From the IMG/VR virus record IMGVR_UViG_3300032236_001858: a DNA stretch of 64,000 bases. One strand, 5' to 3'. Under the pieces are notes generated by a model. The model saw only the letters and a program-made list of their open reading frames with translations, was not told where the DNA came from and searched no databases. The number at the start of each line of letters is the position of its first letter. Positions within the stretch are counted from its first letter, which is position 1. Position numbers and translations under genes: made by a program. Of the stretch, positions 59,657 through 59,762 are shown one piece after another. This stretch comes from a virus. Taxonomy: Duplodnaviria; Heunggongvirae; Uroviricota; Caudoviricetes.

Positions 59657-59762
59657 AGTCAAGTGGCGAAAAGGCGAGACGCATAAGAGTTAATCTTTTG
59701 GGGTAGACCGAAGAACCGCGAAAAAGAAGGTTCCCATACAGGTTCGAGTCCTGTCTTGACTA
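59657..59762 (+). tRNA. 106-nt tRNA-like RNA with an extra internal hairpin and an 11-nt loop in the anticodon-arm position
   Basis: Acceptor AGTCAAG/CTTGACT, D stem GCG/CGC, an extra hairpin AAGAG-TTAAT-CTTTT, stem GAACC/GGTTC closing the loop GCGAAAAAGAA, T arm ACAGG-TTCGAGT-CCTGT. Confidence 0.3.

Follow-up and report, generated by a model that had tools for sequence, protein, structure and literature searches.

The window analysed here, a 64,000-nucleotide (nt) stretch of DNA from a virus of the Caudoviricetes (IMG/VR record IMGVR_UViG_3300032236_001858), carries an array of transfer RNA (tRNA) genes that contains an abnormally built 106-nt tRNA-shaped gene. This gene belongs to a large family of phage RNAs, apparently not described before, of which it is a divergent member. 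The members share the frame of a leucine tRNA (tRNA-Leu), consisting of acceptor stem, D arm and T arm, around middles that differ from one to the next. Membership of the gene in the family, conservation of the frame, variability of the middles and structure of the middles within subfamilies are established by sequence comparison. Judged from sequence, the gene probably encodes (with a probability of about 0.6) a tRNA-processed, leucylatable, non-decoding mimic of tRNA-Leu that belongs to a phage-restricted family. An initial annotation of the gene had proposed a tRNA-derived regulatory RNA, a decoy or a frameshifting tRNA; a regulatory RNA or decoy is supported in kind and remains the best class of explanation, while the frameshifting part of that proposal is not supported by the evidence given below.

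The upper half of the gene has canonical tRNA geometry, with a 7-base-pair (bp) acceptor stem, a 5-bp T stem, a UUCRANY T loop and a GG-containing D arm (Table 1). All complementarities that had been listed for the gene are present where they had been placed, but the layout drawn from them, an extra hairpin plus an anticodon arm with an 11-nt loop where the anticodon loop should be, was mis-registered. Counted from the D stem, the AAGAG hairpin lies at tRNA positions 27-43 and itself fills the anticodon-arm slot, and the hairpin capped by the 11-nt loop occupies the variable-arm slot and is followed by CCAU. The molecule had also been described as neither class I nor class II; its 3-bp D stem, Leu-type D loop, U48, A73 and two slot hairpins are those of a class II tRNA-Leu frame. 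In short, the body of the gene is a class-II-like tRNA-Leu frame whose anticodon and variable slots are each filled by a hairpin. Two parts depart from the canonical form. The variable region between the anticodon-slot hairpin and the T stem is 37 nt long and exceeds ordinary class II size. Opening the anticodon-slot hairpin by one pair yields a 5-bp stem (UAAGA/UUUUG) and a 7-nt loop (GUUAAUC, with U33, UAA and U37), a loop that is non-canonical in its G32, U37 and C38, of which G32 and C38 can pair. A stem and U33 are thus present as in a canonical anticodon arm, but they are accompanied by U37, a pairable G32:C38 and an arm probability of at most 0.16.

Chance does not account for this geometry. 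When both strands were scanned for a T-loop motif closed by a perfect 5-bp T stem that directly adjoins a 7-bp terminal helix, with a total width of 60-200 nt, the window gave 16 matches, all within the array (58141-61386), compared with a mean of 0.025 matches per window for 40 dinucleotide-preserving shuffles scanned with the same geometry; the acceptor and T-arm complementarity is therefore not the accidental match that would have undermined the gene. Whole-molecule folding energy is unremarkable (z = -0.98), so the evidence for the gene lies in tRNA geometry and homology rather than in stability. Folding under constraints, which had been recommended as a check, upholds one of the two slot hairpins more firmly than the other: with the tRNA frame forced, GAACC/GGUUC pairs with a probability of ~0.98, while AAGAG/CUUUU reaches merely 0.09-0.16 because pairing of UUUGG (59697-59701) with CCGAA (59708-59712) competes with it at a probability of 0.37-0.76.

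Standard detection tools pass over the gene. With default settings, ARAGORN calls neither a tRNA nor a transfer-messenger RNA (tmRNA) at this position and no tRNA-Leu anywhere in the window. Rfam searches with 3.5-kb and 121-nt queries gave no match of the gene to the tRNA family RF00005 at E<=10, and the recommended search for tRNA-like structures and tmRNA gave the gene no match above gathering score. The view that the gene is tRNA-derived and yet not a normal tRNA is upheld by its omission from default ARAGORN and by the lack of an Rfam tRNA match at that threshold. When introns are allowed and the threshold is set to 80%, ARAGORN makes a poor call of Leu(aag) with a 28-nt intron and a mismatched anticodon stem. 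An intron-containing tRNA gene that is spliced to normal size could be read from this forced call and from two neighbouring genes that ARAGORN calls at its default threshold with introns of 50 and 44 nt. Such a gene is nevertheless very improbable: the forced reading is sub-default and its stem is mismatched, no 3' segment is complementary to UAAGA to rebuild the anticodon stem after excision, a group I intron would not fit into so short an insert, and the middles of the family share no common splice-site or ribozyme motif.

Relatives of the gene are numerous in IMG/VR. An exact scan with the T arm and acceptor 3' strand returned 11 loci whose genes have unrelated middles but agree in the acceptor, the T arm and a D arm like that of tRNA-Leu. 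The broader pattern GTCARGTGGCG, a gap of 60-90 and GGTTCGARTCC matched at least 119 stretches, and looser detection within the stretches listed gave at least 180 distinct sequences, the collection to which the family counts below refer. The acceptor 3' strand, which lies outside the search pattern, pairs at 7/7 positions in 147/160 among the matches listed. Members are 69-191 nt long, their middles span 19-140 nt, and up to 7 copies were detected per locus. In the four multi-copy loci checked (4/4), the copies are co-oriented with dense tRNA arrays that also hold a full ordinary tRNA set, including tRNA-Leu with different acceptor stems; the 106-nt gene has the same setting, in a phage and co-oriented with tRNA genes. 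Further scans added acceptors with matching 3' strands (GATTAAG, AGTAAAG, GAAGAAG, GGTAAAG, ACTCAGG, GAGCAGG and GATAGAG). One copy of a family subtype lacks the 5' frame and is 5'-truncated or split (L131, ~2440-2530), and a variant of the same subtype carries an insertion of ~35 nt inside the D loop (L160, 4990-5128).

The family is, as far as the sequences surveyed indicate, restricted to phages. Among 185,579 species genomes (one per species), the frame occurs on six contigs of metagenome-assembled genomes alone (1-25 kb) and never as a normal-length tRNA-Leu, and the AGUCARG acceptor is absent from the normal-length tRNA-Leu found. Sampled carriers of the frame encode terminase and a phage-type helicase. 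In the INPHARED collection of cultured phages, no record has the family frame; matches there are at the level of the T arm, plus a true homolog in LR756501. Rfam searches of the window and of six family loci found tRNA and tmRNA only, with weak tRNA matches or none on the members themselves. A literature search that included the frame sequence itself found no description of the family, although one may exist in journals outside its coverage.

Membership of the 106-nt gene was assessed with a covariance model (R1) built from 60 IMG/VR relatives, with the gene itself excluded, and searched against the window and seven other loci (94.7 kb). R1 scores the gene at 70 bits (E 4.6e-15) over the full model length, the best match in the 94.7 kb. 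A gene in the 735-kb phage LR756501 (L229, 1417-1527) scores 58.9 bits; the next-best matches are canonical tRNA-Leu genes of related huge phages (26-44 bits), with other tRNAs at 32 bits or less and T4 tRNA-Leu at 22 bits. Divergence within the family is evident in the D arm, which differs from the family consensus at 5/17 positions with GG shifted by one, and in the 55-nt middle (gene positions 27-81), which holds one or two hairpins, matches none of the other 180 members by blast and clusters by itself as a singleton. Closer relatives were sought by several routes. Synteny through the downstream open reading frame (ORF) of 210 amino acids (aa) gave 0/21 IMG/VR loci with a homolog of the gene, an exact IMG/VR search with its D-arm 20-mer gave 0 matches, and its hairpin pattern matched IMG/VR by chance in coding DNA alone. 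A metagenome scan for the AAG-type frame returned two matches, both with unrelated middles, and IMG/VR scans for huge-phage-type frames found no shared middle, the last of them being empty.

Conservation in the family is concentrated in the frame. A73 occurs in 163/180 members (91%) and U48 in 160/180 (89%), and A14, A15 and G18G19 are each present in at least 90%. A T stem of ACAGG is found in 133/180, and 164/180 have UUCGAAU or UUCGAGU as the T loop. CCA is encoded in 3/180 members, and nearly all have a C after the discriminator. Over positions 5-26, the consensus shows 100% identity to tRNA-Leu genes of E. coli. In the 60-sequence alignment, double compensatory changes occur at 5/7 acceptor and 2/5 T-stem pairs, and 99% of cells are paired, compared with 29-38% when the partner is slid by 1-3 columns. 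Acceptor covariation extends across AGTCAAG/CTTGACT, AGTCAGG/CCTGACT, AGTTAAG/CTTAACT, GATTAAG/CTTAATC, GAAGAAG/CTTCTTC and GAGCAGG/CCTGCTC. The pairing is thus conserved in homologous phage regions, a point on which the initial annotation had let its proposal stand or fall. Five loci that also carry a canonical tRNA-Leu(UAA) allow a direct comparison: family frames are 87% (5') and 95% (3') identical between these loci, part of this identity being imposed by the search pattern, and the canonical tRNA-Leu(UAA) genes reach 76% (5') and 75% (3') over the same portions. The family middles of these loci are 45% identical, compared with 47% for shuffled sequence.

The middles are diverse and structured. 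About 140 middle types occur among 181 sequences (106-nt gene included), and no motif is shared beyond stem-forming GTGG/CCAC words. Members typically contain one to three helices; in half of them, 0-2 nt separate the D stem from the first helix, in a third, 2 nt separate the last helix from the T stem, and in some a short hairpin, for example with a GAAA tetraloop, is all that the middle contains. A canonical 5-bp, 7-nt arm with U33 and R37 is present in 5/182 sequences. Subfamily A2 has an 8-bp helix in the anticodon-stem slot in which double changes keep pairing at four pairs, and subfamily A3 has a 9-bp helix with a conserved loop in the variable-arm slot in which they do so at seven pairs; the middles are therefore not junk. 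These patterns bear on the possibility that the gene is a functionless, decaying duplicate of a phage tRNA-Leu gene with a drifted lower half. A middle without detectable homolog, a folding energy no better than that of shuffles (z = -0.98) and one 5'-truncated family copy (L131) would fit decay. It is improbable all the same, because decay would also strike the acceptor, D and T arms, which are flawless, and because the frame is better conserved across phages than canonical tRNAs are, the acceptor covaries, and subfamily middles keep their helices through compensatory changes.

The same diversity argues against a frameshifting or quadruplet-decoding tRNA that would use the enlarged 11-nt loop. 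Within the gene, the enlarged loop itself is the one feature in favour of such a tRNA, and in a relative (L068) ARAGORN interprets an 8-nt loop, UUCAAGGU, as a four-base anticodon. Frameshifting is hardly credible for the gene, however, since its 11-nt loop lies in the variable-arm slot without U-turn or U33-like context, and the equivalent parts of more than 180 relatives differ freely in both length and sequence, the loops inspected among them ranging widely in size and having no common core. In two homologs viewed by eye, the loops measure 9 and 21 nt.

The LR756501 homolog brings the question of decoding closest to the 106-nt gene. Its acceptor, AGTTAAG/CTTAACT, represents a double change relative to that of the gene, and the two sequences are identical at 20/26 positions of the 5' frame, 25/27 of the 3' frame and 23/53 of the middle. 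It folds as a complete class-II cloverleaf with the loop UUCAGCU, in which CAG is a leucine anticodon. The 106-nt gene might, on this analogy, be a working tRNA-Leu(UAA) with an over-long variable arm that reads UUA/UUG and whose altered loop (G32, U37, C38) evades anticodon nucleases. Its exact anticodon slot does hold a 5-bp stem and a 7-nt loop with U33 and UAA, its homolog has the complete cloverleaf and CAG loop just described, and leucylation ignores the variable arm (PMC9976931). Phage tRNAs with anticodon-loop changes that block nuclease cleavage have been reported (PMC10264068), which also favours a decoding role. Three lysine tRNA (tRNA-Lys) genes with abnormal long variable arms in the same array indicate that the phage remodels tRNA bodies, and default ARAGORN finds no tRNA-Leu in the window. 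To our knowledge, however, a pyrimidine at position 37 and a pairable G32:C38 almost never occur in decoding tRNAs; a pyrimidine is found at position 37 in both huge-phage members and a pairable 32:38 in the 106-nt gene. Its anticodon-slot hairpin thermodynamically closes to a 5-nt loop or is displaced, the canonical Leu(UAA/UAG/CAA/AAG) genes of related huge phages differ in acceptor stem and have Y32/A37 loops, and the frame groups the gene with relatives that plainly lack anticodon arms. A decoding tRNA-Leu is therefore an unlikely identity for the gene, though a likelier one than decay or splicing.

A probably leucylatable, non-decoding mimic is the reading favoured here. Determinants of E. 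coli leucyl-tRNA synthetase (LeuRS) are A73, A15-U48, G18G19, A20a and D/T-loop contacts, and tRNA-Leu variants without an anticodon arm and without the long variable arm are still leucylated by this enzyme (PMC9976931). The set conserved in the family (A73, A14, A15-U48, G18G19, D loop and T loop) matches this published identity set, and the 106-nt gene has A73, A14, A15, U48, GG and the T loop UUCGAGU, with G18G19 shifted by one. The gene would be transcribed within the + strand tRNA array, as its position suggests. Given that position, the lack of an encoded CCA and a C after the discriminator as in neighbouring tRNAs, its transcript would be excised by RNase P, trimmed at the 3' end and supplied with CCA like its neighbours. 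Its elbow and A73 may then let the host LeuRS accept it as a substrate, or at least bind it, because the published identity rules require neither an anticodon arm nor a variable arm. G32:C38, U37, the unstable arm and the 37-nt variable region would, by the rules that govern tRNAs, keep it from normal tRNA-Leu decoding. It may instead act away from the decoding centre, with the constant half serving as a handle and the variable half setting the role or binding of each paralogue. Conservation of the frame at the sequence level argues for a specific protein reader, and the middles, which are diverse, internally conserved and present as several types per genome, suggest that the lower half carries a specific function.

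Several observations weigh against this interpretation. The shifted G18G19 and divergent D loop of the 106-nt gene can matter for LeuRS, and the LR756501 homolog has U73 rather than A73. In both huge-phage members, the exact anticodon slot holds a 5-bp stem whose 7-nt loop contains U33 and a leucine anticodon (UAA in the 106-nt gene, CAG in LR756501); this arrangement would arise by chance with a probability of ~1e-3, by rough estimate, which suggests a recent or even current decoding function. No ortholog with the same middle was found in the IMG/VR and metagenome scans, and the 11+11 nt fixed by the search pattern make the frame statistics partly circular. No conserved partner protein was found near family members (the most widespread ORF cluster occurs in 12/119 loci examined), and no antisense target emerged for the middle of the 106-nt gene, which has three matches to the window at k=11 compared with 2.1 expected. 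A comparison of all family middles with 2.1 Mb of loci did give an excess of matches, but these proved to be additional family copies and not targets.

A broader and more tentative reading treats the family as a widespread and hitherto overlooked class of two-module phage RNAs, in which a near-invariant upper half of a leucine tRNA would be a handle and a fast-evolving, structured lower half would confer specificity. The handle might be read by LeuRS, EF-Tu or another phage or host protein, possibly while charged with leucine; the repertoire would reach seven or more types per genome, and the 106-nt gene would be its huge-phage member. This reading is possible, but less likely than the leucylatable mimic taken alone. 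If it is true, these genes would be natural 'tRNA-scaffolded' effector RNAs or anticodon-independent leucine donors in phage-host translation conflict.

Among known RNAs, bacterial class II tRNA-Leu shares the most parts with the 106-nt gene: the 7-bp acceptor, U8, 3-bp D stem, A15-U48, T arm, A73 and hairpins in the anticodon and variable slots. Its D loop, GAAUUGGUAGA, is identical in the family consensus. The anticodon-slot loop of the 106-nt gene differs in being non-canonical (G32, U37, C38; a 5-nt loop is favoured). The E. coli tRNA-Leu variable arm is ~13-15 nt long, and the variable region of the 106-nt gene measures 37 nt. Class II variable arms have been described only as longer than 10 nt (PMC7609411). 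Engineered minimalist tRNA-Leu (Larkin et al. 2002, as summarised in PMC9976931) retains the same parts that suffice for leucylation, A73 and the D/T-loop elbow; those molecules are laboratory constructs, whereas the phage genes, known from sequence, add diverse structured inserts to the upper half. The nearest natural analogue appears to be a T4 RNA. T4 species 1 RNA (rnaC) and species 2 RNA (rnaD) are stable small RNAs from a phage tRNA cluster, and both are still described as being of unknown function (PMC3014915, PMC9697503). Like the 106-nt gene, rnaC (L240, 1909-2047, - strand) has a perfect T arm (CCGGG-UUCGAAU-CCCGG) that abuts a terminal helix, together with a long structured middle, here of 139 nt. 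Its terminal helix has seven positions with two U-U mismatches, and it folds far better than shuffles (z = -4.6); rnaD has no tRNA-like end of this type. The likeness is architectural, with no homology beyond the T arm (R1 scores 25.5 bits, partial); rnaC lacks a Leu-type D arm, and T4 has single copies rather than a multi-copy family with a constant frame.

More distant comparisons involve RNAs that combine a tRNA-shaped part with other functions. The tmRNA molecule is alanine-specific (G3:U70), lacks a D stem, contains a tag ORF and pseudoknots, and is aminoacylated without an anticodon. In YrlA, a bacterial Y-RNA-like molecule, the RNA termini form a Ro-binding stem and not an acceptor stem. 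The tRNA-like domain of tmRNA resembles the 106-nt gene in that a large insert is framed by an acceptor stem and a T arm. Rfam gives the gene weak, partial matches, to beta-tmRNA at 6 bits and to YrlA at 25 bits (extending from the T arm into the gene that follows), which might suggest a relative of either. Such kinship is scarcely conceivable, given gathering scores of 69 bits (YrlA) and 84 bits (tmRNA) and matches that cover the generic T arm alone; the gene also has U:A at pair 3:70 where tmRNA has G3:U70, a full D stem, and neither a tag reading frame nor pseudoknots. Identity with YrlA (RF02553) or tmRNA is effectively refuted by these scores and by architecture. The aminoacylatable valine, histidine and tyrosine tRNA-like structures (TLSs) of plant RNA viruses are 3' genome ends built on pseudoknotted acceptor stems, and the engineered tRNA scaffolds for RNA expression are artificial. 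Both, as the phage RNAs would, use a tRNA-shaped top half for recognition by host enzymes or for stability and leave the remainder for other functions, but the phage RNAs are free-standing genes in DNA phages.

Table 1. Parts of the 106-nt gene and neighbouring features in the window.
Feature	Position	Strand	Remarks
tRNA array	58141-61388	+	ARAGORN and T-arm/terminal-helix scan; holds the 106-nt gene
106-nt gene	59657-59762	+	tRNA-Lys(CUU) lies 7 nt upstream, another tRNA-shaped gene 10 nt downstream
Acceptor stem 5' strand AGTCAAG	59657-59663	+	7 Watson-Crick pairs with 59755-59761
U8 G9 linker	59664-59665	+	TG in 180/180 collected members, in part a consequence of the search pattern
D arm: 3-bp stem GCG/CGC, 11-nt loop AAAAGGCGAGA	59666-59682	+	A14, A15, G18G19
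Anticodon-slot hairpin U-AAGAG-UUAAU-CUUUU-G	59684-59700	+	Core AAGAG-TTAAT-CTTTT at 59685-59699
Competing hairpin UUUGG-GGUAGA-CCGAA	59697-59712	+	In the minimum-free-energy structure; excludes the anticodon-slot hairpin
Variable-slot hairpin GAACC-GCGAAAAAGAA-GGUUC, 11-nt loop	59713-59733	+	Within the 37 nt before the T stem
CCAU linker ending in U48	59734-59737	+	U48 is the partner of A15 (Levitt pair)
T arm ACAGG-UUCGAGU-CCUGU	59738-59754	+	Perfect 5-bp stem, 7-nt loop
Acceptor 3' strand CTTGACT and discriminator A73	59755-59762	+	A73 is 59762; CCA not encoded, CAAAAAT follows
YqeY-like protein (GatB/YqeY-type domain)	55788-56195	+	Just upstream of the array
84-nt tRNA-shaped gene with CUCUGUGAAAG region	58141-58224	+	Missed by default ARAGORN
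Trp(cca)-like gene	58473-58542	+	Missed by default ARAGORN; sub-threshold tRNA-Sec match, 27 bits
HNH endonuclease with N-terminal helix-turn-helix	58686-59228	+	Inside the tRNA array
Ordinary tRNA-Lys(UUU), 74 nt	59303-59376	+	Neighbour of the class-II-bodied tRNA-Lys genes
tRNA-Lys UUU, UUU, CUU on class-II bodies	59383-59470, 59478-59562, 59566-59649	+	3-bp D stem, 15-19-nt variable arms
142-nt tRNA-shaped gene	59773-59914	+	Perfect acceptor, class-I D arm, T arm, 50-70 extra nt
210-aa ORF	59944-60576	+	Pfam tRNA-synt_His, 2.7e-26
127-nt tRNA-shaped gene	60586-60712	+	ARAGORN with introns: Glu(ttc), 44-nt insert
Ser(GCU)-like gene	61203-61290	+	Missed by default ARAGORN

The window is AT-rich (30% G+C) and resembles the 'huge phage' assemblies LR745206 and LR756501/2 (635-735 kb). 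Its tRNA array is split by the HNH endonuclease gene and by the 210-aa ORF, a histidyl-tRNA-synthetase-like catalytic core that directly follows the odd tRNA-like genes. This class II aminoacyl-tRNA-synthetase core stands alone, without an anticodon-binding domain; homologs with 56-87% identity occur in 21 IMG/VR loci, some beside tRNA arrays, and none was found in the loci that bear the tRNA-Leu-frame family. Long variable arms on lysine tRNAs are abnormal, and the odd tRNA-Lys set is conserved in huge phages LR756502 and LR745206 (L001 2940-3209, L002 3088-3353). PrrC and PARIS target tRNA-Lys, and the long-armed genes may be nuclease-evading variants or may be mischarged. Several tRNA-Leu genes (74-76 nt) with short, class-I-like variable loops stand beside long-arm ones in LR745206 and LR756504 (L230, L232); with both forms coexisting, variable-arm length is unusually free in the huge-phage clade.

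Other tRNA-shaped genes of unusual length accompany the 106-nt gene. With introns allowed, ARAGORN takes the 142-nt gene for a tRNA-Leu(taa) that is interrupted between positions 32 and 33 by a 50-nt insert and has CUUAAGA as its spliced loop; an alternative Asn-like arm (CGGT-CTGTTAA-ACCCG) can be drawn, and the insert folds as a long hairpin. The 127-nt gene has a sub-threshold Rfam tmRNA match (31 bits vs 47) and scores 30 bits with the family model. In the IMG/VR loci of the family, another conserved set of over-long tRNA-shaped genes, of ~151 nt and on another frame, GGCTCCATA...GGTGGGTTCGATTCCCACTGGAGCCA, occurs at L154 6498-6649, L156 4150-4300 and L160 4130-4281, and a further one of 104 nt on a different frame, CCATTCTTAG..., occurs in L068 and L165. 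Over-long tRNA-shaped genes may thus extend beyond the leucine frame.

The usual view takes phage tRNA arrays for codon supplements or for spares against anticodon nucleases, and the 106-nt gene points elsewhere. Hundreds of RNAs in such arrays retain, of a leucine tRNA, only the half recognised by tRNA-processing enzymes and LeuRS and vary all else. The family is a blind spot of tRNA finders and of Rfam, and the covariance model R1 makes the class directly searchable. If these RNAs are charged, they would be natural anticodon-independent aminoacyl carriers; if they are not, they would be natural tRNA scaffolds that present diverse RNA modules. Either way, they would offer a handle on the ~50-year-old puzzle of tRNA-cluster RNAs such as T4 species 1 RNA.

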